Below, piece by piece: positions 807 through 39,801 of a DNA stretch of 64,000 nt; positions within the stretch are counted from its first letter, which is position 1, and each line of letters starts with the position of its first letter. Source of the DNA: an uncultured Armatimonadetes bacterium (GTDB lineage Bacteria; Armatimonadota; UBA5829; DTJY01); contig OY970325.1 in NCBI GenBank assembly GCA_963717145.1, positions 3,936,001 through 4,000,000 on the forward strand. The letters are read 5' to 3'. The position numbers were made by a program, and so were the translations under genes. The notes below the pieces were generated by a model. The model was given only the letters and a program-made list of their open reading frames with translations, was not told where the DNA came from and did not search any database.

Positions 807-1853
807 CTACTCGAAGAGCGCCTCGTGGGTATCCGAACCGTGTATCTGCGTGTGGCAGTTCGTACACGTGGCGTAGCGCTGTGCGAATCTGCCGATATCT
901 CCTCTCGGCGAGTGTGTTCCCGTGTGGCACTTCATGCACAGGAACGGCTCGTTCTGGAGTTGCAGCTTGTTGTTGACCGAGCCGTGCGGGTTGTGGCAAT
1001 TGGTGCATTCCTCGGTTACCGCGGGATGCTCGAACACGAACGGACCGACCTTCTCTGCATGGCATTGTCTGCACGTCTCGTCCACGTTCTCTTGTTTCAG
1101 CATGCCGTTTGGCCCGCCATGAGGGTTGTGGCAGTCCGTGCACTTAACCTTGCCCTCCGCGATCGGATGATGCGAAGGCATCCTGCTCTGGACTTCCTGC
1201 TGCTTGTGGCAGTCAAAGCAGACATACGGTTCGATGCTTCGTCGGTAAGCGGTTTCGGCCCCCTTGAGCTGCTTTCGAGCCTCCTCGAGTTCGGCCGTGA
1301 GTTCCTTGACCTTCTTGTTGGCCGCAAGCTTGTCTTCGCTGCCCGCGGGAGCGACGTTCGATCCCACATCCGTCTGCTTGATCGCTCGAGTGAGTCCTTG
1401 TACGGAGAGCTTGGCGTTTTCCACGTCGCTCAGCAGCTTCTTTTCGCCTTCGCTGTGCAGATCATGGCACTTGATGCAGCTCACCTTGGCTCGAGCATGG
1501 ACGCTCGTCTGCCACTGGGTGACATGCTCTCCGGAGTGGCACTTTAGGCAGGTATCCGCCAACTTGTTCGGTGGCAACTCCTGCGGCCTGATGATCTTCT
1601 TGATGTCGCCGCCGCCTTCGACATGCGCTCCACCCGGCCCGTGGCATGCCTCGCATCCGTTCTGCGAAGGCTCCTTGTTGAAGAGCATTCGTCTGTGAAC
1701 GGTGTGAGACCACGTCTTGACCGTGTCCGCGTGACACGTGGAGCATACCTCACTGCCAATGTACTTGGGCTCGTCCTGTGCTTGGCCCGTGTAGAACCAG
1801 ACCAATCCCAGAACCAGGCAGAACACAAGGGTAAATGCAAGTTTCTTGACCAT
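807..1853 (-). CDS. DmsE/MtrA-family periplasmic decaheme cytochrome c
   Basis: Start MVKKLAFTLVF after SD AAGGAGG; signal peptide; 10 CxxCH motifs; family motifs YIGSEVCSTCH, GCEACHGPG, GPFVFEHPAV, CTNCHTQIHGSD. Confidence 0.9.
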   Translation of the reverse strand: MVKKLAFTLVFCLVLGLVWFYTGQAQDEPKYIGSEVCSTCHADTVKTWSHTVHRRMLFNKEPSQNGCEACHGPGGAHVEGGGDIKKIIRPQELPPNKLADTCLKCHSGEHVTQWQTSVHARAKVSCIKCHDLHSEGEKKLLSDVENAKLSVQGLTRAIKQTDVGSNVAPAGSEDKLAANKKVKELTAELEEARKQLKGAETAYRRSIEPYVCFDCHKQQEVQSRMPSHHPIAEGKVKCTDCHNPHGGPNGMLKQENVDETCRQCHAEKVGPFVFEHPAVTEECTNCHNPHGSVNNKLQLQNEPFLCMKCHTGTHSPRGDIGRFAQRYATCTNCHTQIHGSDTHEALFE

Positions 1854-2092
1854 CGCCTGGCACACGCCTCCTTGATGTTGATTTTGCTTCGCGCTTTCGG
1901 TCACCATCCGGGCCGTCTCCCGAGGGAGCGCCTGCCCTTTGAGCGTTCTGACGGCGCGAGATACTACATTTCGTGTTATTTTGAACGAAACAGCGGAGTG
2001 TTCCTTCCTGCGTGGAAAAAAAAGACGCCTGAACGAGGTTGATTGCCGATTCTCATGTTGTGAGAGCGATCTCCTGGCATAGGAATGCTGCT

Positions 2093-2139
2093 GCAATCAA
2101 GGTGGGACCGGCTTCGCCGGCCGCTCCCGCCTTGATTGC
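2093..2139. terminator. GC-rich hairpin just downstream of the 26-heme cytochrome gene
   Basis: GCAATCAAGGTGGGA-CCGGC...CCGG-CCGC-TCCCGCCTTGATTGC inverted repeat ~10 nt after the stop at 2149; no strong U-tract. Confidence 0.45.
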
Positions 2140-2148
2140 GTGCGCGCT

Positions 2149-3939
2149 CTAAGGGTTCGGATGACACATGGCGCAGTACTCCTGCTTATGGCACTTGAAG
2201 CAGGGCGAACCCTGCGCCAGGCTCGCACCATGCTTCTTATGATCCATTACCCAATTTTCGGGGTGCGGCATCTCTGTTTTGTGGCAATTCATGCAGTTTT
2301 TGCTGTCATGGCAGTTCAGACAGCTCTTGTTGCCTGCTTTCGCGGTCTTGCCGTGTGCCTTCAGCCACTCGCCTTTATGAGAGGACGGCATCAGATTCGA
2401 GTGACACGCATCGCAGAAGCTCTTGGTATGGCAGGTCGTGCAAGTCGTCGATCGGGACTGGCCGCCATGATTCTTCATCCACGCAGGCGACGAGCTGTGG
2501 CTCGCAGGTTTCGTCCCCCGGTGGCAGGCCACACAGAAGCTCTCCTCGTGGCACTTCTTGCATGCCGCCCTGTTCTGTTTCGCCACCGGTCGGTGCGCCG
2601 TCTTCCAGTTCGACGGGTGAGGCATCGTCATGCCGTGACAACTGCTGCAGAAATCCCTGGTGTGACACGTGTTGCACAGCTTGCTGTTGATCGCCGCCTG
2701 CGCGGGATGCTGCTTTGTCCAGTTTGCGGCGTGCGAAGCCGGTTTCTGCGTCTTGTGGCACTTCATGCAGAATTCCGACTTGTGGCATGTCGTGCAGTTC
2801 GCGCTCGACTGCTGGGCGGGATGTCCGTGAGTCCGCAGCCAGGTGGCATTCGCGTGCGAAGCCGGGGTCTTACCCTGGTGACACCCGATGCAGAACTGCT
2901 CCTGGTGGCAATTCTTGCAGGAATCGGCCTTCTGTTTTGCCTGTCCGGGATGCATCTGCAGCCAGTTCTTCGGATGAGTCTGATAGCGCTGATGGCAATC
3001 CGAACAGAAGAGGCGCTCGTGGCACTGGTCGCATGTCCCGGGAGATCGGCGGAACTCCTGAGGGTGCTTGGACAGCCAGTCGAGTTCGTGAGCCCTCTTC
3101 ACTGAGTGGCAGTCTGTGCAGAAACTCTTGGCATGACAGACCTCGCAACTCTGGGGTTTCTTCCGGAACTCTGCCGGGTGAGAGTTCCGCCAACCCGGCG
3201 CGTGCGGGGTCGCCATTCGGTGGCAGTTCTTGCAGAAGTCCTCCTGGTGGCACCGCTTGCAGGAGTCTCGATCGTTCTTGACCTCCTGTTTGTGGCCCTC
3301 GACCCACTCGGGAGTGAACACGCTGGGTTGTCGCATGCCTAATGTTTCATGGCATAGCCCGCACGTATTGGGAGCCTTCTTGCCGTCGTGACACTTGAAG
3401 CAGGTGTCCATCTTCGGCGTATTCTTGGTGGCAGCGTTCGGGCCGTGGACTACGTTGTCGTGGCAGAATGTGCAGGAAATCCCGCGGTCCCAGTGCTTCT
3501 TGTGCGTAATCTTCAGTCCATGGTAGACGACCAGGTCTCGGGTTTCGGGATGGCATTTCTTGCAGTTTGCATCCGGGACATGCCCCTGGATGGCTCCCGG
3601 GTCAACGCCACCCTTCACGTGCTTATACACCTGGCGCATTGCCGAGAACTTGCTCTTCGCCATGTTCGTGAGGCCGGGCATGAGGTGGCATTCCTCACAC
3701 TGGACATCCTTATGCGAAGACTCACCCCATGTCGCATAGTGGACGTCCATTTCGTGGCAGGAGGAGCAGAAGATCGACCTGTTTGTGGCGGCTACTCCGC
3801 TGACCAGCGCGATGCCGAGAATCCCGAAGGCAATCAGGAGCATGCCCCAGCTTATGGTCCAGCGCACTATCGGTATAGTGATTCTGGTCTTCAGCAGGCG
3901 GATACAGGCCTCTCTGGAAACGAAACTAGGGGCTCTCAA
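2149..3939 (-). CDS. NapC/NirT-type membrane-anchored multiheme cytochrome c with 26 CxxCH motifs
   Basis: N-terminal TM helix then FCSSCHEM...WGESSHKDVQCEECH (NapC/NirT signature); 26 CxxCH counted, the last 20 as ten W...H...CxxCH-xxx(F)-CxxCH repeats. TTG start overlaps the upstream stop. Confidence 0.88.
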   Translation of the reverse strand: MRAPSFVSREACIRLLKTRITIPIVRWTISWGMLLIAFGILGIALVSGVAATNRSIFCSSCHEMDVHYATWGESSHKDVQCEECHLMPGLTNMAKSKFSAMRQVYKHVKGGVDPGAIQGHVPDANCKKCHPETRDLVVYHGLKITHKKHWDRGISCTFCHDNVVHGPNAATKNTPKMDTCFKCHDGKKAPNTCGLCHETLGMRQPSVFTPEWVEGHKQEVKNDRDSCKRCHQEDFCKNCHRMATPHAPGWRNSHPAEFRKKPQSCEVCHAKSFCTDCHSVKRAHELDWLSKHPQEFRRSPGTCDQCHERLFCSDCHQRYQTHPKNWLQMHPGQAKQKADSCKNCHQEQFCIGCHQGKTPASHANATWLRTHGHPAQQSSANCTTCHKSEFCMKCHKTQKPASHAANWTKQHPAQAAINSKLCNTCHTRDFCSSCHGMTMPHPSNWKTAHRPVAKQNRAACKKCHEESFCVACHRGTKPASHSSSPAWMKNHGGQSRSTTCTTCHTKSFCDACHSNLMPSSHKGEWLKAHGKTAKAGNKSCLNCHDSKNCMNCHKTEMPHPENWVMDHKKHGASLAQGSPCFKCHKQEYCAMCHPNP

Positions 3940-4898
3940 CTCTTGTACCCCCCGTCGTCCGTCGCATCATGCTTCCCGCCGCCGTTGTTTCTGAGCTTCT
4001 CGCGCTCCGCTATGATCTTCTCGTATTCCAGCGGATGATGATGCATGATGTTCTCCTTGGATATCTTGCCGGTCAGCCACGTCCAACTCATGGGGAAGTT
4101 GTCCGGATTAAAATGCACGTTGTAGAAATGCCATATGATGATTGCCAATGTGGCGAGGAGCGCCTCATCGCTGTGAGCCTCATGAGCCATGTCCAGCGCA
4201 AACTTGGGCAGGAGCGCCATCGTCGTGTCCTGGAACCAGAGCATCAGCCCTGATGTGATCATGACGACCATTCCCCAGTATACTGCCCAATAATCGAATT
4301 TCTCAATGTAGCTGAACCTGCCGAACCTCGCTCCGATCTTCGAAAAGCCCAGAAAATACTTGACGTTTCTGTAGACGTCGGCAACATCCTTGAACTTCGG
4401 AAGCCACTCCATGATGTTGTGGCGTCCTTCCCTCATGGCTATGATGTAGAACACATGGAATGTGCCAACTGCCATGAGGCCGACCGCGCCGATCCTGTGG
4501 ATCAGGCCGCTCTGCGCGACGCCGCCGATAAGGCGGAAGAAAGCGCCCGCCCAGTCAGTGTTCGGGAATTTCAGAGGAATGCCCGTCACGATCAGTATGA
4601 TGCAACTTGTGAAGAGCGCCATGTGCTGCAATCGGAATACGATGCTGAACCGCTCGAATTCCTCTTCGTCGCCGAGCTTCGAGACTGCCGGAGCCTTCCG
4701 CCGGCGAGTCTTCTCTTTCGCGGCTACCTCGAGCCTGTCACGGAGTTCGCGCCGGAGCTGTTCCCGCACTTCATCTTTGGCCCGTGCCAGCGTTTCGGCA
4801 TCGAGTTTGGACCCAAGCTGCTCTGCAGCGGCATCCAACTCACTGTCTATGCTTTCATCGGAGATATGTTTATCGGTTATCGGTCTGTCTCCAGCCAT
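3936..4898 (-). CDS. Cytochrome b subunit (FdnI/HydC-like; CbcL-type membrane domain) with charged N-terminal extension
   Basis: RFS...RLQH, IHRIGA, FHV, RFSYIEKFDYWAVYWG, AHSDEALLA, WHFYNVH; four TM segments with His ligands. Confidence 0.85.
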   Translation of the reverse strand: MAGDRPITDKHISDESIDSELDAAAEQLGSKLDAETLARAKDEVREQLRRELRDRLEVAAKEKTRRRKAPAVSKLGDEEEFERFSIVFRLQHMALFTSCIILIVTGIPLKFPNTDWAGAFFRLIGGVAQSGLIHRIGAVGLMAVGTFHVFYIIAMREGRHNIMEWLPKFKDVADVYRNVKYFLGFSKIGARFGRFSYIEKFDYWAVYWGMVVMITSGLMLWFQDTTMALLPKFALDMAHEAHSDEALLATLAIIIWHFYNVHFNPDNFPMSWTWLTGKISKENIMHHHPLEYEKIIAEREKLRNNGGGKHDATDDGGYKS

Positions 4899-4899
4899 G

Positions 4900-5634
4900 T
4901 TATCGTTCCGTTTCGATTAGCTCTCTGTCGTCGGCCTTCCGCTCATTGCCCACGATGCGCTCGTACTCCAGGGGATGATGCTCTTTCATCTCGTGTTCGG
5001 AGATCTCACCGGTGAGCCAAATCCTGCTCATCGGGAATACCTCCGGGTTGAGATGAACGTGATAGAAGTGCCAGATGATGATCGCGAGGAATGCGAGCAC
5101 GGCCTCGTAGCTGTGTACCACCAGGCCGATGTCCAGTGACCACTTGGGCAGCACCAGCATCGCTTGTTCCTCGAACCAGAGGATAAGGCCGGTGAGGATC
5201 ATGACCGCCGATCCCCACGCCAGCGCCAGATACTCGAACTTCTCGATGAAGTTGAAGCGATCGAACTTCGGTTTGTCCCGCTTCAGACCGAAGTAGTATC
5301 CGAGCATGTGGATCACGTCGAACAGGTCCTTCGGCTTCGGAATGAGTGCCATGAGTTCGCGGTGACCCCTGTTCGTGAACACGGTCCAACCAACGTGGTA
5401 AGTGCACACCAACATCAGGATGACGGCCGAGATGCGATGAAGCACCGATCTCGCCGTGAAGCCGCCCAGGAATCCTATCAGGTGATGCGCCCAGGCGGCG
5501 TCATCGTACCGGAGCGGCAAGCCGGTCAGCACCAGCAGGAAGAAGCTGATCATCATGAATATATGCTGCGTGCGCTGGCTGCGCGAAAGCCTCTCGAAAC
5601 GGCGCTCGCCCGTGAGAATGGATGAATCGGTCAT
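4900..5634 (-). CDS. Cytochrome b subunit (FdnI/HydC-like), paralog of the downstream gene
   Basis: RTQH, LHRISA, KFDRFNFIEKFEYLALAWG, VHSYEAVLA, WHFYHVH. Start placed at MTDSS, which forms a TAATG overlap with the upstream stop. Confidence 0.85.
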   Translation of the reverse strand: MTDSSILTGERRFERLSRSQRTQHIFMMISFFLLVLTGLPLRYDDAAWAHHLIGFLGGFTARSVLHRISAVILMLVCTYHVGWTVFTNRGHRELMALIPKPKDLFDVIHMLGYYFGLKRDKPKFDRFNFIEKFEYLALAWGSAVMILTGLILWFEEQAMLVLPKWSLDIGLVVHSYEAVLAFLAIIIWHFYHVHLNPEVFPMSRIWLTGEISEHEMKEHHPLEYERIVGNERKADDRELIETER

Positions 5635-6932
5635 TACTTGCCATACCCCCTGCTGCCATTCCGGGAACGACGACGCCACCGCGAGATCAGATCCAGCGCG
5701 ATATAGGCGCAGAACGAGCCTATCAGCAGTATTATGAACCCGGTGTAGAAAATGCGCACCCAGTATACGCCCTTGTCCTTCTTGCTCGATGGGAGAACAT
5801 GCACCGACCCTTCAGCAAAGTTCTTACTGGCGCCGGGATGGCATACTCCGCAGGTCTTGGGCATGTTCGTCTTGTTGATCGATGACTTGGGGTCGCTCGC
5901 CGGCCTTATGTCGTGCGCTCCGTGACATGTCGCGCAGTTGGCGACGGTGATGTCGCCATACTTGTTGGCAACTCCGTGATAGCTCTCGATGTACGTACTC
6001 AGACGGTTGGCCGGCAACCCGTACTTGCGCTCGATTCTCATGTCCTCGTGGCACTTGGAGCAAGTGGCCACGACATGAGTCGGATAGACGGAGGAACGCT
6101 CCTCCGAAGGCTTGGCGATGGTATGCTCACCATGACAATCGGTGCAGGAGGGGGCATCCTTGATCCCGCTTCTCAGGGCCTGCCCGTGGATGCTTTCCTC
6201 GTAGGTCTTGTATATCTTCTGGTGGCATTTCCCGCAGGTCGCCGGTATGTGAGGCTTGCTGACGGTCGAGCCCTTCTCCTTCGCGGCCTCTATATTGTGG
6301 ATGCCATGGCAGTCGGTGCACGTCGCGGCAGCCAGTAGACCCTGCTTGTCGACTGCCTTGCCGTGAACGCTGTCCCGGTACAGCCGGATCGTCGCCGGAC
6401 CGGGAATATTGTGCCGCTCTGTCATGGCGGTATCGGAGTGGCACTTGCCACACGTGTGCGCGATTCTCGATCTGTATGTGCTGGACTTCGGATCGCTCGG
6501 CGCCTTGATGCCATGTGTGCCGTGACAGTCTTTGCAGTTGGGAGCGTCCTTGTCCATTCTCTTCACGGCCTGACCGTGTACGCTGTCCGCATATTCCGTC
6601 ATGGGACTCAGATTCGGCGCGCCGACCGTATTGTCTATCTTGTGACACCGGCTGCAATTCACGGGGTCCGCGTTCTGCTTGTGGGGAAAAGACTGGCCCG
6701 CGAGATCTGTGTGACAGTCCTCACATTTCCTGCCCGCATGCACCGATTGCTGGAGTTCGCTTGCTTCGACATGCAGGGACATCTGCTTGCCGCCTATGGT
6801 CTTGCTCAATCCCTTGGCACTGTGGCACATGAGGCACTTGCCGGAGTCCACCATGGTGGCCGGCGTGGCCGGAGATGCGAGCGCAATAGCGACAACCGCC
6901 ATCAAGCAGGATAGTATCGATCTTCTGAGCAT
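5634..6932 (-). CDS. 11-heme cytochrome c with signal peptide and C-terminal TM anchor (CbcL-like periplasmic domain)
   Basis: 11 CxxCH motifs; repeated YxxSxHG...CxDCHGxH...CGKCH units; C-terminal hydrophobic helix followed by RWRRR. Confidence 0.88.
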   Translation of the reverse strand: MLRRSILSCLMAVVAIALASPATPATMVDSGKCLMCHSAKGLSKTIGGKQMSLHVEASELQQSVHAGRKCEDCHTDLAGQSFPHKQNADPVNCSRCHKIDNTVGAPNLSPMTEYADSVHGQAVKRMDKDAPNCKDCHGTHGIKAPSDPKSSTYRSRIAHTCGKCHSDTAMTERHNIPGPATIRLYRDSVHGKAVDKQGLLAAATCTDCHGIHNIEAAKEKGSTVSKPHIPATCGKCHQKIYKTYEESIHGQALRSGIKDAPSCTDCHGEHTIAKPSEERSSVYPTHVVATCSKCHEDMRIERKYGLPANRLSTYIESYHGVANKYGDITVANCATCHGAHDIRPASDPKSSINKTNMPKTCGVCHPGASKNFAEGSVHVLPSSKKDKGVYWVRIFYTGFIILLIGSFCAYIALDLISRWRRRSRNGSRGYGK

Positions 6933-6959
6933 AGAGTGTTCCCCCTGAGACCTGTCGAG

Positions 6960-8069
6960 CTACCGTGAAGCCCTTCGCCGCCGGCGCTTTGCGTACAGAT
7001 CGAGCAGTATGTGACCGATCAGAGCCACCATCGTGCATATCGTCAGCCACTTGAACGCGGTGCTTACGTAGTATAGCACTGACTGTTCTCCGTGTGAGAT
7101 TATGACGTGTATCTTTCCTTTGGCAAAGTTCTCGTTTGACCCCGTATGGCACTTACCGCACGTCTTGGGCAAATTCGCCTTGCTGACACTCGACTTGGGA
7201 TCGCTGGACGGGCGTATGTTGTGCGCGCTGTGACAGCTTGCACAATTCGCCACGGCCGGATTTCCAAACTTGTTCGCCACACCGTGATAGCTCTCACGGT
7301 ATGTCGCGTATCGTTCCTTGGGAATTCCGTACTTCTTCTCGATAAGCAGGCTGTCATGGCACTTCGAGCAGGTCTCCGGTATGGTGGTCGCATATACGGA
7401 GGAAGCTGGATCCTTCGGCGACTGGATGGCGTGCTCTCCGTGGCAGGTCGTGCATACCGGAACGTCGGGGTTGCCATGCAACAGAGCTTGTCCGTGAATG
7501 CTCTCGCGGTAGTCGCTGTATATGTCGATATGGCATCGGCCGCACATCTTCGGAACCTCTGCCTTGTTGACGCGCGACTTCGGGTCCGACGGTTTCCTGA
7601 TGTCGTGTCTGCCATGGCAATCCTGGCAGGTCGGGGCGCTCGTATTGCCGGATGCAAGGGCGCGCTTGTGGATGCTTTCACGGTATTCGGCGGGTTTCTT
7701 CGGCATTTTGATGCCCTGGATCTTCTCCACGTAGTGGCACCGCCCGCAGTTCACCTTTTCGATGTGATCCAGGCCGTGAGGAATCCGTTTGATGTCGTTA
7801 TGGCAATCGGTGCAAGCGCGTTGGGAGTGGACCGTCTTGGCGAACTCCGCGCCGTCCACGTACAGCGAGATCGTTCTGCCGTCAGCCATGGTCTTCTTGA
7901 GCTTCGGATCGTCATGGCAGCCCAGACACACGCCGTTATCCCTGGATGACTCCAGGTTCACGGGTATCGATGCGGCAGACGCGCTCGGACCCGCAAGCCT
8001 GAACAGAAGTGCCAGGCAGGCGGTCATGTGGAATACTCTGACGTTTTGAACTATTGTACCTTTTTTCAC
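6960..8069 (-). CDS. 9-heme cytochrome c with signal peptide and C-terminal TM anchor (CbcL-like periplasmic domain)
   Basis: 9 CxxCH motifs; clear paralog of 5634-6932 (e.g. ESYHGVANK(F/Y)G...VANCAxCH). Start uncertain (GTG 8069 chosen); the ORF-track extension to 8258 runs through a repeat element. Confidence 0.85.
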   Translation of the reverse strand: MKKGTIVQNVRVFHMTACLALLFRLAGPSASAASIPVNLESSRDNGVCLGCHDDPKLKKTMADGRTISLYVDGAEFAKTVHSQRACTDCHNDIKRIPHGLDHIEKVNCGRCHYVEKIQGIKMPKKPAEYRESIHKRALASGNTSAPTCQDCHGRHDIRKPSDPKSRVNKAEVPKMCGRCHIDIYSDYRESIHGQALLHGNPDVPVCTTCHGEHAIQSPKDPASSVYATTIPETCSKCHDSLLIEKKYGIPKERYATYRESYHGVANKFGNPAVANCASCHSAHNIRPSSDPKSSVSKANLPKTCGKCHTGSNENFAKGKIHVIISHGEQSVLYYVSTAFKWLTICTMVALIGHILLDLYAKRRRRRASR

Positions 8070-8089
8070 TAATTTGCCCCGGACACTGT

Positions 8090-8120
8090 AGTATATCACA
8101 CAATGCCCTGATCTAGTCAA
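8090..8120 (-). promoter_or_regulatory. Candidate sigma70 promoter for the cytochrome operon
   Basis: Minus strand TTGACT-N19-TATACT with extended -10 TG, ~20 nt upstream of the proposed start. The spacer is long. Confidence 0.4.
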
Positions 8121-8170
8121 GAGGAAATTCGTAAAAACGGGTACGTGAGGAGGAGGAAATTCGGGGCTCC

Positions 8171-8236
8171 GTAGTGGCCGTGCCTCTGTGCCGGCCAAGT
8201 GACCTGGCATGGCCGGCACAGATGTACGGCAACTAC
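8171..8236. repeat. GTAG-type REP/REPIN-like palindrome, copy 1 of 4
   Basis: GTAGTGGCCGTGCCTCTGTGCCGGCC-loop-GGCCGGCACAGATGTACGGCAACTAC; other copies at 12047, 51243, 59313. Confidence 0.85.
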
Positions 8237-8250
8237 GGAGCTTCCGTCTA

Positions 8251-8300
8251 GCCCGCATTATTCATGACCTGCTGAAGTCAGCACATGAATAATGTGGGCT
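8251..8300. terminator. Hairpin immediately after the stop of 8299-11253
   Basis: GCCCGCATTATTCATG...CATGAATAATGTGGGC inverted repeat. Confidence 0.45.
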
Positions 8301-31622: not shown

Positions 31623-34600
31623 ATGGACCAGTCACACGGCAGTCTAATCGACCGGATCATCCACGCCTCCTTCAAGCAGCAGGCGATCGTCGTGATGCTC
31701 GTCGCGCTGGCGCTGGTGTTCGGCATCGTCGGCCTACCAGCAGATGCCCCGGAACGTCTATCCCGACATCACGATCCCGGTCTTCACCATCGTCACCGAG
31801 AACGAGGCGATGGCCCCGGAGGAGATCGAGATGATGATCACGCGCCCGATGGAGTCGGCGATGAACGGCCTCCCGGGCGTGCGCAGGATCCGATCGCAGA
31901 CGACTCAGGGGCTCTCGTCGGTCGTCGTCGAGTTCGACATCGAGACCGAGTTCTGGCGGGCCAGGCAGTTCGTCACCGAGCGGATGGCGCAGGTGGCGGC
32001 GCAGCTTCCACCGGGCACCGAGCCGCCGACTCTGAGCAGCGCGACCACTCGCCTCGCGGAGGTCTACGAGTCGCCGTCGAGGGCGATCTCCCGCTGACGG
32101 AGCTGCGCGAGACTCGCCGAGTGGCAGATCGCTACAACCTGCTTACCGTGCCGGGCGTCGCCGAGGTGCTGAACATGGGCGGCCACATGCGCCAGTATCG
32201 GGTCACGATCGACCCGAACCAGCCTCAGGGCGTACGGCATCACGCTTGCCGAGTTGAAGAGGCCGTCAAGGGCGGCAACGAGAACGCCGCCGGCGGATTC
32301 ATCAGCACCGGCCCGACGGAGTACACCGTGCGCGGGATCGGCCGCTTCGACTCGGTCGAGGACATCGAGGACACGGTCGTGGGCGGAACGGGCGGCGTGC
32401 CGATCTTCCTGCACAACGTCGCCGACGTCGAGGAGGGCACCGCGATCCGCAGGGGCATCGCCAGCAAAGAACGGCAAGGAGACCGTGGTCGCGCTCGTCA
32501 TCAAGCAGCCGAACGCCGATACCGTCAAGGTCGTGGAGGGCATCGAGAAGGCGATCGAGGAGATGAAGCCGACGCTGCCCAAGGGCGTCCGGATCGCCCC
32601 CTACTACGACCAGACGCACCTGATCCAGGACTCGCTCTCCAGCGTCACCCGCGCGATACTGGTCGGCGCGGTGCTCGTCATCCTCGTGCTTCTGCTCTTC
32701 CTGGGGCACTTCCGCAGCACGCTGATCGTGGCGGCGTCGCTGCCGCTCTCGGTGATCATCGCCGGGCATCCTGATGCGGCAGCATGGGCGTCGGCCTCAA
32801 CACGATGTCGCTCGGCGGGCTGGCGATCGCGGTCGGCATCATGGTGGATGCCTCGATCATCATGGTCGAGAACATCTACCACCGGTTCCACAAGAGCCGC
32901 GGCGAACCTCGATCGACGCCGGAGGCGAAGGAGCGCGTCGCCCACAAGGCGGCCATCGAGGTCGGGCGGCCGATCGCGTTCGCGACGCTCATCATCATCG
33001 CGGTGTTCCTGCCCGCTCTTCCTGATGGGCGGGATCGAGGGACTGCTCTTCCGTCCGCTCGCGGTCACCGTGGCCGCGGCGATGCTGGTGGCGCTCGTGC
33101 TCTCGCTGACGCTCACGCCGGTCCTGGCGAACACGGTTCCTGCATCCCGAGGAGGGCGACGAATCCGAGGGCGAGGTGAAGTTCGTCCGGTGGATCAAGC
33201 GGCGGCTACGTCCCCGCGCTGGAGTACGCGCTCACTCACCGGTAGGCTGGTCATCGCGCATCGCGTTCGGGCTGCTGATCCCGGCGGCGCTCGGCCTGAT
33301 GGCTGTGGGCAAGGACTTCATGCCGAAGCTCGACGAGGGCTCGTGGTTCATCTCGACCGTCAACACCGGCCGAGACCTCGCTGGAGGAGAACGACCGGAT
33401 CACCCGGCAGATCGAGAAGCGTCCTGCTCGCGAACCCCAACATCGCCGAGGTCGTCCGCCGCAACGGGCGCTCCGAGCGCGCCATCGGCTGCGTGCTGCC
33501 GGTCAACCTCGGGCGAGATCTTCGTCAACCTCAAGCCCAGCGAACCAGCTGACCAAGCCCGCGGACCGAGGTGCTGGCGGAGGTCCGCGAGCAGATCGAG
33601 CAGATCCCGGGCGTCGCGGCCGCGTTCACCCAGCCGCTGCAGAACAAGATCGACGAGAGCCTGGAGGGCACTCCCGCGCCGCTGCAGGTGAAGCTCTTCG
33701 GTCCGGACATCCAGGTGCTGGCCCAGAAGGGCAAGCAGATCGAGGCGATCATGCAGGGCGACACGCGGGCGTGGCCGACGTGAAGATGGACCAGGCCACG
33801 GGCATCCCGCAGCTGCAGGTCCAGATCGACCGGCAGGCCGCGGCTCGCTACGGCGTCTCGGTGGCGGACGATCTCCGAGATCGTGCGGCTCGCGGTCGGC
33901 GGCGAGGAGCTGACCCAGGTCTGGAAGAACCAGCGCAGCTACGGGGTCTTCGTGCGCTTCCCGGACGAGATGCGCGGCGACCCCGGAGGCGATCGGCAAC
34001 CTGCTGGTGGATACCCCGTCGGGCGGCGCAGATACCGCTCTCGCAGGTGGCGCAGGTCACTCTCTCCGAGGGCCCGAACGTCATCTGGCGCGAGGCGATG
34101 AACCGGCGGCTCAGCATCGACGCCGAGCATCCAGGGCCGCGACCTCGGCAGCGTGGTCTCGGACATCAAGAAGGGCCTGACGAAGGTCGAACTGCCGAAG
34201 GACTACTTCGTCGTCTTCGGCGGGCAGTACCAGAACCAGCAGCGGGCGATGAAGTCGCTGCTGCTGGCGACGGCGATCGCGCTGGCGGTCGTGTTCATGC
34301 TGCTCTTCGTGGCGCTGAGTTCGGCGTCGCAGGCGCTGATCATCCTGGCGACCGTGCCCAGCGCGTTCATCGGCGGAGTGGCCTCGCTGCTGCTCACCGG
34401 CGAGACGCTCAACGTCTCCTCGGCGGTCGGGTTCATCGCGCTCTTCGGGATCGCGGTGCAGAACAGCCTGGTGCTGCTGACTCAGACGAGGGACTTCATC
34501 GACGGAGGGGCACACCAGGGATCAGGCGATCCGGCTGGCGAGCGTCCAGCGGCTGCGGCCGAAGCTGATGACGGCCTCGTGCGCGGCGCTCGGGCTCCTG

Positions 34601-34759
34601 CCGATCCTGCTCAGCGGCGGCGTCGGCGCGGAGATCGAGAAGCCGCTGGCGATCGTGATGGTCGGCGGGCTGGTGACCTCGACGCTGTTCACGCTGCTCG
34701 TGCTGCCGGCGGTCTATCTCCTCGTGGAACGGGTGAAGGACCGCGTCAGTCCCGCCTGA
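31623..34759 (+). pseudogene. CusA/CzcA-family heavy-metal RND permease, disrupted by more than ten frameshifts (likely assembly indels)
   Basis: Colinear fragments in alternating frames: [113 protein letters not shown]. Confidence 0.85.
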
Positions 34760-34798
34760 CGGCCGCAGATGCCGTTTATCGCTATGCACTGGGAGAGT

Positions 34799-34862
34799 CG
34801 ATCCCCTGACGACTCCTGTCGTCGGCGCGAGCCACCCGACGACAGGAGTCGTCAGGGGATCG
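34799..34862. repeat. Perfect hairpin downstream of the RND gene
   Basis: CGATCCCCTGACGACTCCTGTCGTCGG...CCGACGACAGGAGTCGTCAGGGGATCG. Confidence 0.75.
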
Positions 34863-34891
34863 GCGTCTTCCCGAGAGTTCGGAAAGCCCCC

Positions 34892-35011
34892 ACCGTGAGT
34901 CCTGAGTGCGCCGGTGAATGACGGCGTGTATCGAAGGACGGACTTGTGGTACTCCGCAGGCCGTCCTTCGATACACGCCGTCATTCACCGGCGCACTCAG
35001 GACTAGACGGT
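34892..35011. repeat. Long palindromic element, copy 2 (same family as 21559-21668)
   Basis: AGTCCTGAGTGCGCC-GGTGAATGAC-GGCGTGTATCGAAGGACGG...CCGTCCTTCGATACACGCC-GTCATTCACC-GGCGCACTCAGGACT; followed by an octamer tract (ACTCCTTG)n at ~35027-35063. Confidence 0.85.
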
Positions 35012-35105
35012 TCCAATCCCCCTCAAACCTTAGCTCCTTGACTCCTCAACTCCTTGACTCCTCCCGAAGTGTATCCTTTGGCGAACGAGGCGCATCTATG
35101 CTATT

Positions 35106-37370
35106 GTGAAAGCAGAGATGCGCAGTCAACGTCACAACCTGAGCGACGCCGAGATGGTGCGGCGGACACTGGCGGGCAGCCGGTCGAGCTTCGACGCCTT
35201 GGTCGACCGGTACCGCGACCGGGTCTACCGCCTGGCCTACTTCAAGGTCCGCCGCCCGGACGAGGCCGAAGACCTCGCCCAGGATGCGTTCGTTGCCGCC
35301 TACCAGGCGCTCGGACAGCTCAGGGATCTCGACCGCTTCGCCCCGTGGCTCAGGCGGGTGGCCGAGAACGTCTGCAACATGCGCGTTCGTCGGACGCGCC
35401 CTGAGACCATCCCCATCGAGGATTACCACACGCCAACCGAGGACCACAGCATCGAACGATGGCTCCTCGACACGCGGATCCACGATGCGCTCTCTCAGCT
35501 TTCAGAGACCAACCGCCTGGCCGCGACGCTCTTCTTCGTGGACGGCCTCTCCCAGAAGGAGATCGCCGAGTTCCTCGACGTTCCGGTGACGACCGTCAAG
35601 CGCCGGATCAACCTGTCGCGCGCCCGGCTCAAGAAGGAGTTGATCGATATCATGCACGACACAATCGGCCCGGAGAAGGCGAAACCCGGGTTCGCCGATG
35701 AGGTCTCCGCCAGGATCGACGTGCTGCGCTGGTGCCGGCAGTTCGGCGACTACATCAACGCCGGGGTGACGCTCGTCAGGGCGCTCTCAGACCTGGAGGA
35801 GGGCGACTTTTCCGATCGAATCAAGGCGGAGACGCACGCCGTCCGAGCCGCCATCATGGAGGGGGCTTTCCTCACTGCGGCGATAAGGGAGCACTCACCA
35901 TCGCTCAATCACCCGCTGATCGTCGGGATGCTCCGCGCCGGCGAGATCGGCGGCGTGCTGGATCAGAGCCTGAGCACGATCGTCTCGTGGATGGAACGCG
36001 AGGACATCGGCCTCAAAGTCGATACGGCATATTGGCTCCGAACGCTTGCCATGATGCTTTCCGCGGGTGTGCCGGTCGTGCAGGCGATCGACACGATGCA
36101 GCACGTCCGAGCGGCCGAACCGCTCCCCGACCTGCAGGCCAGGCTGAACGAAGTCATCCGAGAGGGCTGTCGCTTCCCGGTCATATTCGCCGAGTTCCCG
36201 GGACTCTTCAGCCCGGCGGTGATCGCACTCGTCGCCGCCGGTGAGGAGAACGGCATGCTGGACACGGCACTCGTCATTGCCGCCTCGGAGATCCTCCGCG
36301 AGGCCTTCGAGAAGATTCAGTCCGACACGGCGCTCTCGTTCGACGCCCATGCCCGGGAGAAGTTGGCGGAACAGGTCAGAGCGCATCTCGCCGACAAGTC
36401 GCCCGAGTCACGGATCGGCGCGCTCCAGGCGCTCGATCAACTGACGGGTGCTGTTCGGGTTGTCCAGGTCGGCCCGCTGACATCCCGACGCGCTCCAACG
36501 TGGGGAGAGCTGACCGGATCCGAGTCGATGGAATGCTACGTCTCGGCGCTCGACGACCGGTCGGCCGACGTTCGACGCACCGCCGCCGAGATCCTCGGGA
36601 AGCATCCGTCGGCGGAGTCGGTCACCGCGCTCTCCAGGGCGCTGAAGGACAAGTCGCCCGAGGTCAGGCAGGCGGCGCTGGTGTCGCTGTCGAGCATCGA
36701 TCCCCGGGCCGGCTTCGAGCGTGCCAAGTCGATGCTGGGCGACAAGTCGGTCGGTGTACGGCGTGCGGCGATCCGAATCGTCGGGTCGTTAAGCAGCCGG
36801 GATGCAGCCGACCTGCTCGTCCCGCTGCTCGCAGACCCGGACATGCTGGTCGCCAGCGATGCGATGAAGGGGCTGAAACGCATCGGCGCACCGGCGGTCG
36901 AGCCACTCGTCAACGCGATGAGCGCGACGAAGCCGTTGAGCTGCCAGCTCGCGATGGAGGCGCTCAGAGAGATCGATCCCGGCAAAGCGCGGGAGGTCGC
37001 GCTGGATCTTCTGCAAAGGGGAATCACGGACGCCCGATCTGCTGCGATGCGCACCATATCACGGGTCGGTGGGGACGAGGACATCCCCCTGTTGATCGAA
37101 GCGCTGTCGGACAGCGATCCCTACGGGGTGGTGCGCGACGCCGTGGAGGCGCTCGGACGCCTGAAGGCAAAGGATGCCGTGCCCGCGCTGATCATCACGC
37201 TCGATCATCCCGAGGAGTGGATCGCGCTGAGAGCAGCTTATGCGCTGGCGGCAATCGGCGACAAGAGCGCGATCCCGGCGCTCGAGGCTAAGCTCTCCGC
37301 CAACAATCCTCGCCTGGTGATCAATGCCGCCACGGACGCGCTGAAGTGTCTCGGCGCTGAATGCACATAG
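35106..37370 (+). CDS. ECF sigma-70 factor fused to two T2SS-F/PilC cytoplasmic domains and HEAT repeats
   Basis: Sigma region 2 (AEDLAQDAFVAAY...FAPWLRRVAEN) and region 4 (DGLSQKEIAEFLDVPVTTVKRRINLSRARLK); T2SSF-like RQFGDYINAGVTLVRAL...AGEIGGVLD and RTLAMMLSAGVPVVQAI...AGEENGMLD; HEAT repeats (LxDxxxxVRxxAAxxLG). Confidence 0.85.
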   Translation: MKAEMRSQRHNLSDAEMVRRTLAGSRSSFDALVDRYRDRVYRLAYFKVRRPDEAEDLAQDAFVAAYQALGQLRDLDRFAPWLRRVAENVCNMRVRRTRPETIPIEDYHTPTEDHSIERWLLDTRIHDALSQLSETNRLAATLFFVDGLSQKEIAEFLDVPVTTVKRRINLSRARLKKELIDIMHDTIGPEKAKPGFADEVSARIDVLRWCRQFGDYINAGVTLVRALSDLEEGDFSDRIKAETHAVRAAIMEGAFLTAAIREHSPSLNHPLIVGMLRAGEIGGVLDQSLSTIVSWMEREDIGLKVDTAYWLRTLAMMLSAGVPVVQAIDTMQHVRAAEPLPDLQARLNEVIREGCRFPVIFAEFPGLFSPAVIALVAAGEENGMLDTALVIAASEILREAFEKIQSDTALSFDAHAREKLAEQVRAHLADKSPESRIGALQALDQLTGAVRVVQVGPLTSRRAPTWGELTGSESMECYVSALDDRSADVRRTAAEILGKHPSAESVTALSRALKDKSPEVRQAALVSLSSIDPRAGFERAKSMLGDKSVGVRRAAIRIVGSLSSRDAADLLVPLLADPDMLVASDAMKGLKRIGAPAVEPLVNAMSATKPLSCQLAMEALREIDPGKAREVALDLLQRGITDARSAAMRTISRVGGDEDIPLLIEALSDSDPYGVVRDAVEALGRLKAKDAVPALIITLDHPEEWIALRAAYALAAIGDKSAIPALEAKLSANNPRLVINAATDALKCLGAECT

Positions 37371-37395
37371 CACCCACCGCTGACAGTGGCGTCGG

Positions 37396-37428
37396 TCTCC
37401 CTTGGCGGTCTTGGCGTCTTGGCGGTTA
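37396..37428 (-). repeat. Nonamer-periodic AACCGCCAAGACGCCAAG element, copy 1
   Basis: Minus strand TAACCGCCAAGACGCCAAGACCGCCAAGGGAGA; its TAA is the stop codon of the glycyl-radical gene. Confidence 0.8.
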
Positions 37429-39801
37429 CTTCTGATGCTTCGTGCGGGCGATGATGTGGTCCTGCATGGCTCGGTCGAGGAGGCGGAACGGCTGGCTGAA
37501 TCCTGAGACGCGCACACAGAGGTTCGAATAGCGCTCGGGGTCCTCCTGGGCCGCGCGGAGTGATTCGGCGCTCACCACGTTGAACTGCAACTGCCCGACG
37601 CCGAGGTGGACCGCGCTCATCAGGAGGTCGGTGAACGCCTGCTTCCCACTGCCCGAGAGCAGACTCGGGTGCGCCTCCAGGATCGCCGAGCTGCTCGCGG
37701 CCACCAGATGGTGCGGTATCCGGCTGAGCGAGTTCACCACCGCCGTCAGGCCCTCCTGGTCGCGGCCCTGAACCGGGGACACGCTGTAGGCGAGCGGCTC
37801 TCCCGAGAGCCGGCCATCGGGCGATGCGCCGGTCGCTTGCCCCATCGCGAGCATCAGTGTGAACGTGAAGAGGTGGACGTGATAGCCCCCGCCGCTGGGC
37901 GTCCGATACCGGCCAAGGACCTCGCAGTACTGACGCGCCAGTTCCGCCGCATACTCGTCCGGGAGCGGCTCGTCGTTGCCGTACTTCGGGAGGCGATTCT
38001 TGAGGTACAGGCGCAGGTCCTCGCGACCCTCGAAGTTCGCCCTGAGCGCCTGAAGCATCTCGTCCGGGCTCGTATCAGTGCACTGTAGGGGCGTGCCTTG
38101 TGCCGCCCGAGACCGCCTGCCCACCTGGCGCTGTAGGGGCGTGCCTTGTGCCGCCTGGCGGGTGGTCTCGGGCGGCACAAGGCACGCCCCTACAGCGTTA
38201 TCATTGAAGACTGCGGTCTGGAGGGCGGCCAGGCTGTCGGCGACGTTCGGGATGCCCATCGCCGCGCTGGAGTGGTAGTTGTAGCGCGCGCCGCCCTCGA
38301 TGATGTCGAGGCCGTCCGAGACGCAGTCCTCGGTCAGCAGCGAGAGATACGGCAGCCGGAACTGGTCCCGGTGCGCGAGCTCGGCTGCATTCGAGCCGTA
38401 GACCGACCATTCGGCGAAGTAATCGAGCTGCTTCGAGTAGGCCGCGAGCACGTCATCCATCGAGCGGAAGTCTGCCAGCGTGCCGGTTTGTGGGCCGACC
38501 TGGACGTCGTCGAGCAGATCGCGGCCGTCGTTGAGCGCCAGTTCGAGGCACTTCGCCAGGTTGATCCAGTGGCTGACCGCGTGGGGATTCGCCTTGCCCG
38601 GGATCGTGATCTCGATGCAGCCGATCGCCGCGTAGTCGCGCGCGTCCTCGATCGGAATCCCCTTCGACACGAGCGCGGGGATGAGCGCCTCGTCGTTGAA
38701 GAAGAACGGAATGCCCCCGCCCTGCGCCACGAGATCGACGCACCGCGGGACGAACTCGCGCGGGCTGCCACCATGCAGGCGCGCGGAGAGGCATCGCACG
38801 AAGCCGAGCCCCTCGGTCACGTCGAGCACCAGGTAGCTGAGCGGATTGACCGCATCGCGGCCGTCGGCCTGTTGGCCCCCGATCATCATCTGCTGGACGT
38901 CGTAGGCCTGGTAGAGCTTGACCCATAGTGCCGCGAGCAGTTCGGCGGCCTGTTCCATGTCGAGCAGCCCTTCCGCGAGGTCCCGTTCGAGGTACGGCCA
39001 GAGGAACTGATCGATCCGCCCGATGCCGTTCGCGTTGACGCCGTCCTCCCAGACGGTGATCATGTGGGCGAACCAGAGCGACTGAATGGCCTCGCGGAAG
39101 GTCCGCGCGGGCTGTGCCGGGACGTGTTCGCATATCTCGGCGATCGTTTCCAATCCGCGACGCCTGGCCTCTTCCGCGTGACGCCTGCCGAGGGTGATCG
39201 CCGCATCGCATATCCTGAGCCAGGCAAGGAGATTCGCCCGCCTGTGTGGGCCGTCCGGATCCGTCGGAGAGAGAGAAGTAAGAGCGGCTTCGACCTCGGC
39301 CCGTATGCCCGAGAATCCGAGGCGCAGGACCTTCTCGTAGTCCCGAATGCTGTGGTTCAGTTCCGTGCCCCAAACCGAGATGACGCCGTGCTCCTGGGCT
39401 AGGGTGATCTCCGGCGGAGTCGGCGCGACCCCGGCTAGCTTCTGCCATGCGAACAGCGGCTGCTCGGTCCAGGAGAGGAAGCGGTCTCGCTCCTCGGCGG
39501 TCAGGTGGGATGTGATGTCCTGCCGCCAATCCTGCGGGATCTCAGGCGTGAACGGGATAGGGTAGCAGGGATTTCCGTGCTCGCCGGCGATCAGGTCGCC
39601 GTCGGTGATGCGAACCGGCATCCGCTCGATGACGTTCGCGAGCCCACGGGCGTTTCGGATCGGCAGGGATTGGCCCTCAGCCGCCAACCAGCCCTCGAGG
39701 TAGTAGTACGGGCAGTACCAGCGTCCGTGAAACAACTCCTCCGGCTGGGCGAGCATCCTCTCCCGCAGCCGTTCGATTCGCTCCGAGGGCTGATAGGTCA
39801 T
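37426..39801 (-). CDS. Glycyl-radical enzyme (pyruvate formate-lyase superfamily, PflD-like)
   Basis: GRIDQFLWPY, AAIGCIEI (Cys loop), PKYGND, GASPDGR, QLQFNVV, VRVSGFS (glycyl motif); carries an in-frame repeat-derived insert. Confidence 0.9.
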   Translation of the reverse strand: MTYQPSERIERLRERMLAQPEELFHGRWYCPYYYLEGWLAAEGQSLPIRNARGLANVIERMPVRITDGDLIAGEHGNPCYPIPFTPEIPQDWRQDITSHLTAEERDRFLSWTEQPLFAWQKLAGVAPTPPEITLAQEHGVISVWGTELNHSIRDYEKVLRLGFSGIRAEVEAALTSLSPTDPDGPHRRANLLAWLRICDAAITLGRRHAEEARRRGLETIAEICEHVPAQPARTFREAIQSLWFAHMITVWEDGVNANGIGRIDQFLWPYLERDLAEGLLDMEQAAELLAALWVKLYQAYDVQQMMIGGQQADGRDAVNPLSYLVLDVTEGLGFVRCLSARLHGGSPREFVPRCVDLVAQGGGIPFFFNDEALIPALVSKGIPIEDARDYAAIGCIEITIPGKANPHAVSHWINLAKCLELALNDGRDLLDDVQVGPQTGTLADFRSMDDVLAAYSKQLDYFAEWSVYGSNAAELAHRDQFRLPYLSLLTEDCVSDGLDIIEGGARYNYHSSAAMGIPNVADSLAALQTAVFNDNAVGACLVPPETTRQAAQGTPLQRQVGRRSRAAQGTPLQCTDTSPDEMLQALRANFEGREDLRLYLKNRLPKYGNDEPLPDEYAAELARQYCEVLGRYRTPSGGGYHVHLFTFTLMLAMGQATGASPDGRLSGEPLAYSVSPVQGRDQEGLTAVVNSLSRIPHHLVAASSSAILEAHPSLLSGSGKQAFTDLLMSAVHLGVGQLQFNVVSAESLRAAQEDPERYSNLCVRVSGFSQPFRLLDRAMQDHIIARTKHQK
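38083..38197. repeat. GTAG REP cluster inserted in frame within the glycyl-radical gene
   Basis: Two direct copies of CTGTAGGGGCGTGCCTTGTGCCGCC plus one inverted copy GGCGGCACAAGGCACGCCCCTACAG. Confidence 0.9.

Follow-up and report, generated by a model that had tools for sequence, protein, structure and literature searches.

A sigma factor fused to a membrane-free GspF/PilC-type tandem and HEAT repeats in an uncultured Armatimonadetes bacterium, and its possible ATPase partner

The window analysed here is a 64,000-nt stretch of DNA from an uncultured Armatimonadetes bacterium (assembly GCA_963717145.1, contig OY970325.1, positions 3,936,001 to 4,000,000). At positions 35106-37370 on its forward strand, a single open reading frame (ORF) was found to encode a 754-aa protein in which an extracytoplasmic function (ECF) sigma factor is followed by a soluble tandem of domains resembling the two cytoplasmic domains of GspF/PilC platform proteins, and then by a HEAT-repeat solenoid. 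Sequence comparisons suggest, with a probability that we put at roughly 0.4, that the PilC-like tandem docks the sigma factor onto the hexamer of a PilB-family ATPase, most likely a soluble anti-sigma ATPase.

Architecture and conservation of the fusion protein

The ORF list of the window placed the start of the 754-aa frame at a GTG codon, while an alternative ATG at position 35118 yields a 750-aa protein, which is the version present in the protein collection, on a contig of 5,366,867 bases. A preliminary description of this DNA had proposed a single ORF encompassing sigma regions 2 and 4, two T2SSF domains and HEAT repeats, and this architecture was confirmed by Pfam and NCBIfam. The N-terminal part contains sigma-70 region 2 (residues 32-98, positions 35199-35399; PF04542 Sigma70_r2, E 2.6e-15) and region 4 (residues 124-177, positions 35475-35636), the latter being recognised by both Sigma70_r4_2 (PF08281, residues 124-175, E 3.1e-12) and PF04545 (E 2.3e-7), with regions 1.1 and 3 being absent, as is typical of ECF sigma factors. 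The NCBIfam sigma70-ECF model (TIGR02937) was matched with 83.6 bits (cut-off 42.9), and the NCBIfam equivalog models (SigM, SigW, RpoE and others) all scored the fused sigma factor far below their own cut-offs. In the AlphaFold model, the two sigma domains are separated by a low-confidence linker of just ~25 residues. Foldseek comparison of an AlphaFold2 model of residues 1-412 (predicted local distance difference test (pLDDT) 69, predicted template modelling score (pTM) 0.46) related the sigma part to SigW, AlgU, sigmaE and SigH, and the tandem part to PilC (3jc8). Judging from its score above the sigma70-ECF cut-off, its invariant motifs and its predicted ECF fold, the sigma part looks functional.

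The middle region was recognised as T2SSF (PF00482) in two stretches (E 9.5e-28), in keeping with the earlier reading of this region and with the two-domain organisation of GspF/PilC proteins. The first helical bundle, resembling cytoplasmic domain 1 (Cyto1; residues ~204-299, positions 35715-36002), was assigned on the basis of the NCBIfam GspF model (residues 204-299 against model positions 63-157), an alignment with Myxococcus xanthus PilC (3jc8) and its similarity in fold to 3c1q. The second, resembling cytoplasmic domain 2 (Cyto2; residues ~310-410, positions 36033-36335), was assigned from the best T2SSF stretch (residues 310-410 against model positions 1-102 of 125), hydropathy and the 3jc8 alignment. 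In that alignment (E 2.7e-18), domain 1 corresponds to PilC residues 70-200 and domain 2 to residues 280-368; further structures matched by sequence were 5nbg, 2whn and 2vmb. When compared with solved Cyto domains using Foldseek, template modelling scores of 0.73 for EpsF 3c1q (root-mean-square deviation 2.2 Å, 96 columns), 0.76 for OutF 5nbg and 0.74 for PilC 2whn were obtained. The domain coordinates proposed earlier held to within ~40 nt, with domain 2 ending at ~36335 rather than at 36300.

None of the three transmembrane (TM) segments of platform proteins was detected in the fusion protein by the 3jc8 alignment, Pfam or hydropathy, and the short, helix-free joint between the two domains that had been noted before was thus borne out. 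This spacer comprises ~7 residues (297-303), whereas PilC possesses ~110 residues at the same point, encompassing TM1, the periplasmic loop and TM2; moreover, as the T2SSF match ends at ~102 of 125 model positions, the membrane-helix end of the model is unmatched. The highest mean Kyte-Doolittle hydropathy over 19 residues was 1.94, at residue 359, on the conserved FPxxF...AGE motif within domain 2, whereas canonical GspF/PilC proteins of ~400 aa displayed two or three segments with peaks of 2.0-3.7 in the same analysis.

The C-terminal part (residues ~414-754, positions 36345-37367) was matched by Pfam HEAT_2 in four stretches (E 5.2e-36) and predicted by AlphaFold to form a solenoid of ~20 helices, or about ten repeats. 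The full-length AlphaFold2 model was all-helical (pLDDT 81, pTM 0.51), with most HEAT helices above a pLDDT of 90, and all of the Foldseek matches listed for it were HEAT/armadillo or other helical-repeat proteins. Compared with its closest homologues, the protein carries an insertion of ~20 residues (residues ~449-469, positions 36450-36510) between the first HEAT pair and the remaining solenoid. This loop is lineage-specific and was modelled as disordered (residues 452-469, pLDDT <50); a palindromic-repeat insertion was ruled out as its source, as no palindrome was detected in this stretch. A different, unrelated insertion was observed at the same HEAT position in homologue P0007.

Five full-length homologues (725-876 aa, 47-71% identity) from different metagenome contigs were shown to share the whole architecture. 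When the middle region was searched exhaustively with HMMER, 6931 matches at E <= 0.001 were returned, the best 150 of which were considered; a Pfam scan covered 33 of these in addition to two already-known proteins, and the representatives counted below are those of clusters at 50% identity. Within this set, at least 12 full-length representatives with sigma, T2SSF and HEAT domains were identified, alongside at least seven truncated-looking ones (one with a cut sigma part, four without HEAT repeats and two without a sigma part), four fusions of a T2SSF tandem to a T2SSE ATPase and 12 T2SSF-only proteins. Among 401 sampled genomes of the phylum, the fusion was found in seven, belonging to three families (G000, G004, G007, G038, G318, G369 and G393), as counted from contiguous two-domain matches in long ORFs. 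Two paralogues are present in G038, and the sigma2 part of the G369 copy lies in another frame, corresponding to one frameshift. In addition, Logan contigs of strains with 85-95% similarity, derived from four DNA runs in three studies (shares 0.05-0.11), span both junctions: the sigma/T2SSF junction is covered by, for example, contigs 35255-35746 and 35219-35731, and the T2SSF/HEAT junction by contigs 35788-37243, 35879-36701 and 36084-37500. Among the sequencing runs listed as containing this sequence, none was an RNA run. On the basis of the homologues, the cluster representatives, the genome survey and these bridging contigs, a chimeric assembly was ruled out, and the fusion is not an assembly artefact.

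Sequence motifs of sigma regions 2 and 4 were invariant across 20 family members, down to 27% identity, and the domain 1 signature P265, L267, G279, E280 and G283 (P..L...GE..G) was likewise invariant in 20 of 20. A maximum-likelihood tree of 71 tandems (205 columns, quick search) placed the 22 sigma-fused tandems in one clade (Shimodaira-Hasegawa-like approximate likelihood ratio test (SH-aLRT) 99) composed of two deep subclades. The locus scan of genome contigs was based on sigma motifs, and its best 80 loci matched the sigma part alone (query residues 1-218).

Directly upstream of the gene, a candidate ECF-type promoter was identified (TATCCTTT-N13-CATCTAT, positions 35072-35099, forward strand), the -35 box TATCCTTT being located at 35072-35079 and the -10 box CATCTAT at 35093-35099, with 13 nt separating it from the -35 box and 6 nt from the GTG. 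The motif is conserved upstream of family genes although their neighbourhoods differ. The two-box pattern ATCCTT[TC]-N12-15-C[AT][ATC]CTA[TC] was present at five of eight family loci versus none of 5000 random 330-nt pieces of the genome, and the -35 box ATCCTT[TC] alone at all eight loci versus 187 of the 5000 pieces. Within the 5.37-Mb genome, the site upstream of the fusion gene was the sole strong one (matrix score 30.4; next best 21.6). Because this conserved ECF-type promoter lies directly upstream, the fusion gene is probably autoregulated. A weaker look-alike (AATCCTTT-N13-GCTCTAT, G000:C1:210647-210674) was observed 36 nt ahead of the gene for a long ECF paralogue (505-aa ORF), which hints that related extension-bearing ECF sigma factors may share this promoter type.

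A PilB-family ATPase as possible partner

The candidate partner is encoded in the same genome, ~230 kb from the window (G000:C1:4198480-4199805). It is a PilB/GspE-type ATPase of 441 aa with an N-terminal zf-HC2 domain (residues 3-37, E 9.3e-8), referred to here as zf-HC2 anti-sigma ATPase (ZAS-ATPase), which retains the N2 and C-terminal domains and lacks N1. Its gene directly follows an ECF sigma gene (ORF of 236 aa) in a two-gene operon (G000:C1:4198480-4200570; L138:7481-9571, minus strand), which is preceded by a conserved promoter of its own (GAACCTTTT-N13-TTCT). The same arrangement, with the sigma gene directly upstream on the same strand, was encountered in 16 of 17 loci examined. Across six of six ZAS-ATPase orthologues, the H-x3-C-x2-C zinc motif, Walker A and the four-cysteine motif were invariant, as were the Walker B and His-box regions (D261, P262 and D263; G286, H287 and L288). 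Literature searches returned no description of a zf-HC2-T2SSE anti-sigma factor.

Among the best 150 matches, the proteins without strongly hydrophobic segments comprised sigma-fused, ATPase-fused and short stand-alone tandems, showing the cytoplasmic half of this filament platform protein to exist on its own as a soluble, reusable module. At least four cluster representatives and one JGI locus (L167) carry such a tandem at the N-terminus of a PilB-like ATPase; the ATPase parts exhibited 41-47% identity to the PilB paralogues of the genome, with no single best match. One of these tandem-ATPase fusions, MBI3921439.1 from an Armatimonadetes metagenome-assembled genome, is annotated at NCBI as 'Flp pilus assembly complex ATPase component TadA'. 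The ATPase-fused form is carried by G273, an eighth genome of the 401-genome sample, in a tightly packed operon (L150, G273:C123, 3-3570, minus strand) in which an ECF sigma gene (208 aa) is followed by a gene for a 494-aa ATPase that matches the ZAS profile in an N-terminal extension, and then by the MBI3921439.1 gene, which is cut by the contig end. In genome G009 (L152, G009:C174, 5435-8833, minus strand), the sigma/ZAS-ATPase pair is followed by a gene for a 387-aa ATPase without an N-terminal domain, at the position that the tandem-ATPase occupies in G273. Among the best 80 loci obtained in a search of metagenome contigs with ATPase-fused tandems, one true fusion (L167) was recovered.

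Stand-alone proteins with two T2SSF domains (218-377 aa), all with hydropathy peaks below 1.9, were also observed (P0134, P0142, P0145, P0149, P0152, P0158, P0162, P0165, P0166, P0181, P0196, P0213, P0221 and P0259). A sister family of long ECF sigma factors (P0014, P0019, P0048 and P0099) combines the sigma part with a helical region of ~270 residues, not recognisably T2SSF, followed by HEAT repeats and DUF2087; its copy in G016 (L154:9984-11999, minus strand) is located ~4 kb from the sigma/ZAS-ATPase operon of that genome.

The distribution of the fusion was compared with that of the ZAS-ATPase, a genome being counted as a carrier of the latter if it had a match across the ZAS-to-N2 junction, which applied to 28 of the 401. 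The ZAS-ATPase was detected in five of the seven fusion genomes (G000, G004, G038, G318 and G393) versus 23 of the 394 others (one-sided Fisher p = 2e-5, a value that overstates the association because related genomes are not independent). A sixth, G007, probably carries it as well, based on a contig-end fragment with 58% identity. In family f27, G318 is the one genome of 24 with the fusion and also the sole ZAS-ATPase carrier among the 20 sampled, while in family f4 (28 genomes) the fusion was found in G038, G369 and G393 and the ZAS-ATPase in G038, G393 and five others. Taken together, the tandem-ATPase fusions, the G273 operon and this co-occurrence provide independent genomic support for a link between the tandem and an ATPase. 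The preliminary description had proposed coupling to a filament motor; the connection to an ATPase gained support, while the likeliest partner indicated is the ZAS-ATPase and not a working pilus or type II secretion system (T2SS) motor.

The mechanism that we propose is inferred as regards the docking itself, the partner involved, the direction in which control runs and the autoregulation of the gene. The protein would be an autoregulated one-component ECF sigma factor whose C-terminal extension consists of the membrane-free Cyto1 and Cyto2 of a platform protein, followed by the HEAT solenoid. The Cyto1-Cyto2 module would retain its ancestral role, which is to dock onto a hexameric PilB/GspE-family ATPase through the N2 domains of the latter. 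According to the portion of PMC10790770 covered here, each Cyto domain contacts one ATPase N2 domain in the PulE6:PulF3 model. The likeliest partner would be the soluble ATPase of the same genome with its N-terminal zf-HC2 domain, encoded beside its own ECF sigma factor. Docking may retain the sigma factor at the ATPase or set it free, thereby tying transcription to the state of the ATPase, and the HEAT solenoid might bind a further protein or signal. A complex prediction of the zf-HC2-ATPase (alignment of 6) with residues 190-430 of the fusion protein (alignment of 20), run at 1:1 and without controls, gave no verdict in either direction (score 0.00, mark 0.32); the canonical pair has been modelled in print as a 6:3 assembly, which a 1:1 prediction does not represent.

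Several observations, besides the relatedness of the genomes mentioned above, weigh against docking onto the ZAS-ATPase. The fusion is present in G369 (73% complete, frameshifted fusion), where the ZAS-ATPase was not found, and the 23 genomes with the ZAS-ATPase that are without the fusion imply that the ATPase system does not need it. The fused sigma factor shares just 30% identity with the ZAS-paired sigma factor, ranking 9th-11th among the paralogues, so that nothing suggests recognition of the fused sigma factor by the ZAS domain. No ATPase gene adjoins the sigma-fusion gene in any of the eight loci examined, and neither a sigma nor a ZAS gene is found near L167, the second ATPase-fused locus with DNA context. 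In the quick-search tree, the grouping of all 40 membrane-free tandems, together with one long-branched membrane form, received weak support (SH-aLRT 86). Furthermore, the genome-wide matrix scan revealed no second strong promoter site besides that of the gene itself.

A broader and more speculative proposal, which we regard as improbable though worth stating, is that ATPase hexamers bearing zinc anti-sigma domains and a ring of membrane-free tandems might form a soluble signalling machine of Armatimonadota, built from filament motor parts. Each tandem would be joined to another ECF sigma factor or, depending on the lineage, to another ATPase, and ATP-driven movement of the N2 domains would capture or release the two different sigma factors. 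If true, such a sigma/anti-sigma switch would depend on energy and be of a kind for which no sigma family provides a described example.

Genomic surroundings and alternative readings

Upstream of the fusion gene lies a resistance-nodulation-division (RND) efflux operon consisting of an OEP gene, an HlyD-type gene and an AcrB-type gene. The AcrB-type gene (31623-34809, forward strand) is broken up, consecutive portions of the ACR_tran model being matched in five or more overlapping ORFs that lie in different frames; it is a pseudogene in decay unless the stretch contains indel errors. Elsewhere in the genome (G000:C1:2504565-2506354), a PilB-like ATPase gene adjoining pilT and pilC falls into two overlapping ORFs of 347 and 287 aa, which makes it a second apparently frameshifted gene in the assembly.

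Two palindromes resembling repetitive extragenic palindromic (REP) elements separate the RND-pump remnant from the sigma gene. The first (34799-34862) is perfect, with 27-nt arms (100% complementary) and a 10-nt loop, and probably insulates against or terminates upstream transcription; the second, longer one (34898-35004), which is REP/REPIN-like, has 47-nt arms (98% complementary) and a 13-nt loop. At both palindromes, depth in soil and freshwater metagenome contigs was 10-100x that of the flanking gene; summed contig depth in the bin 34891-34981, for example, was 243-1483 versus 5-25 over the gene. Raised metagenome depth was also observed in the 3' intergenic region (37348-37438), which contains CTTGGCGG-type direct repeats. 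A few contigs join 34861-34865 to 37399-37400, omitting the entire gene, with a shorter side of just 23-29 letters; these joints probably reflect repeat-mediated mis-joins or relatives without the gene. The downstream neighbour is a convergent gene for a glycyl-radical enzyme. Elsewhere in the window (807-8258, minus strand), a gene cluster was observed that encodes four multihaem c-type cytochromes (with Paired_CXXCH, Cytochrome_C7 and MtrC/MtrF-like domains) and two cytochrome b561-like proteins, followed by two proteins of ~1050 aa without any Pfam match.

A Pfam scan of the window revealed no anti-sigma, pilus or secretion genes, which is in line with the earlier statement that no anti-sigma gene is adjacent to the fusion gene; a soluble extension thus follows sigma4 with no cognate anti-sigma gene adjoining. 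The remaining T2SSF and T2SSE genes of the genome are all located outside the window, placing the fusion gene apart from any type IV filament cluster. Pilin-like genes in the window had been put forward as a link to such filaments. This argument was not confirmed, because neither a canonical prepilin motif nor an N_methyl match was detected in the window, nor any type IV pilus or T2SS gene. Across eight family loci, no conserved neighbourhood was found, except for dnaN upstream in two genomes of one family, and no anti-sigma domain occurred among the neighbours. The neighbours of the other members were mutually unrelated (dnaN/aroA, a methyltransferase, a transposase with AbiEi, NamZ, GH42, MnmE/Jag and a sugar-binding protein).

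The main rival to docking, which we consider somewhat less likely, is regulation purely in cis, as in ECF41, ECF42 and ECF56: the Cyto bundles and/or the HEAT repeats would fold onto sigma2/sigma4 to inhibit or license them, and binding of a protein or ligand to the HEAT repeats would relieve this, with no ATPase being involved. According to the parts of PMC3426412 and PMC7826278 covered here, an established class of ECF sigma factors carries regulatory domains fused at the C-terminus and has no adjoining anti-sigma gene, and the fusion gene is without an adjacent anti-sigma gene as well. The sister family, found in the same class, demonstrates that the sigma-HEAT pairing exists without a recognisable T2SSF tandem, and HEAT repeats are described, in the covered part of the ECF literature, in the anti-sigma factors of ECF231, ECF275 and ECF277. 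Conversely, regulation in cis leaves the invariance of the GspF/PilC signature residues, the tandem-ATPase fusions and the co-occurrence with the ZAS-ATPase unexplained; compact packing was not predicted with confidence by either AlphaFold model (full length, pTM 0.51; residues 1-412, pTM 0.46), which on its own decides neither way.

It is less likely that the tandem competes with, or reads out, the canonical PilB and PilT of working type IV pilus/T2SS motors and thereby makes transcription dependent on pilus activity. Candidate motors are numerous in the genome, with 13 T2SSE matches and eight other T2SSF gene loci, and the ATPase parts of the fused forms are PilB-like, at the 41-47% identity to its PilB paralogues given above; in the covered portion of the literature, Cyto domains are modelled as binding ATPase N2 domains generally. 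However, no pilus or secretion gene is located near the fusion in any of the eight loci, the window contains no canonical prepilin motif, and canonical PilC was matched in 351 of 401 genomes compared with seven for the fusion, which tracks the rarer ZAS-ATPase. This reading was given a low weight because the fusion follows the rare ZAS-ATPase and not the near-universal PilC, and because pilus genes are absent from its vicinity.

That the protein is not a working sigma regulator at all, being a scaffold or decoy with a vestigial sigma part or a functionless accident of one lineage, is highly improbable: the finding of no target promoter besides its own and the frameshift in the G369 copy would fit, but the motifs of sigma regions 2 and 4 are invariant down to 27% identity, the architecture has been kept in three families and two deep subclades, and the promoter is conserved. 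The earlier suggestion of a soluble decoy of the platform protein gained no support of its own.

Comparison with known systems

What switches on each ECF group is a central question, ECF sigma factors being a major class of bacterial signalling proteins, and the family described here adds a new kind of fused regulatory extension to them. If the tandem docks onto a PilB-type ATPase, it would provide a naturally soluble handle on the long-elusive interface between platform protein and ATPase, and docking would, together with the anti-sigma-ATPase of the same genome, point to ATP-dependent sigma control; if the link to the ATPase holds, the fusion could belong to something categorically new. The conserved promoter represents a ready-made reporter for testing the docking idea.

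An ECF sigma factor with a fused extension is a known kind of protein. An ECF group with a T2SSF tandem, or with T2SSF and HEAT domains, was found neither in the main text and the covered part of the supplement of the ECF reclassification paper nor in full-text literature searches, so that the combination of a soluble platform tandem and HEAT repeats matches no described type within these sources. Like ECF41, ECF42, ECF56 and related groups, the fusion protein consists of sigma2 and sigma4 followed by a soluble extension, with no adjoining anti-sigma gene, and its gene is probably autoregulated from a conserved promoter. Unlike theirs, which are SnoaL-like, tetratricopeptide-repeat or Cys-rich, its extension comprises two T2SSF domains and HEAT repeats.

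With the platform proteins GspF, PilC and PulF, the fusion shares two homologous cytoplasmic helical bundles bearing the family signature, similar in sequence and fold to PilC, EpsF and OutF. In contrast to them, it possesses neither the periplasmic loop nor any of the three TM segments, its tandem is flanked by a sigma factor and HEAT repeats within one chain, and it is encoded outside any pilus or secretion cluster; it is therefore not a platform protein. The tandem-ATPase fusion MBI3921439.1 contains the same TM-less Cyto1-Cyto2 module, originates from the same phylum and was grouped with the sigma-fused tandems, with weak support, but the partner of its tandem is an ATPase, whereas here it is a sigma factor. 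Finally, the ECF sigma/zf-HC2-ATPase pair, from the same genome and phylum, resembles the fusion in that a type IV filament motor part has been recruited to ECF sigma control. It differs in consisting of two genes and in having recruited the ATPase, as opposed to the platform domains.

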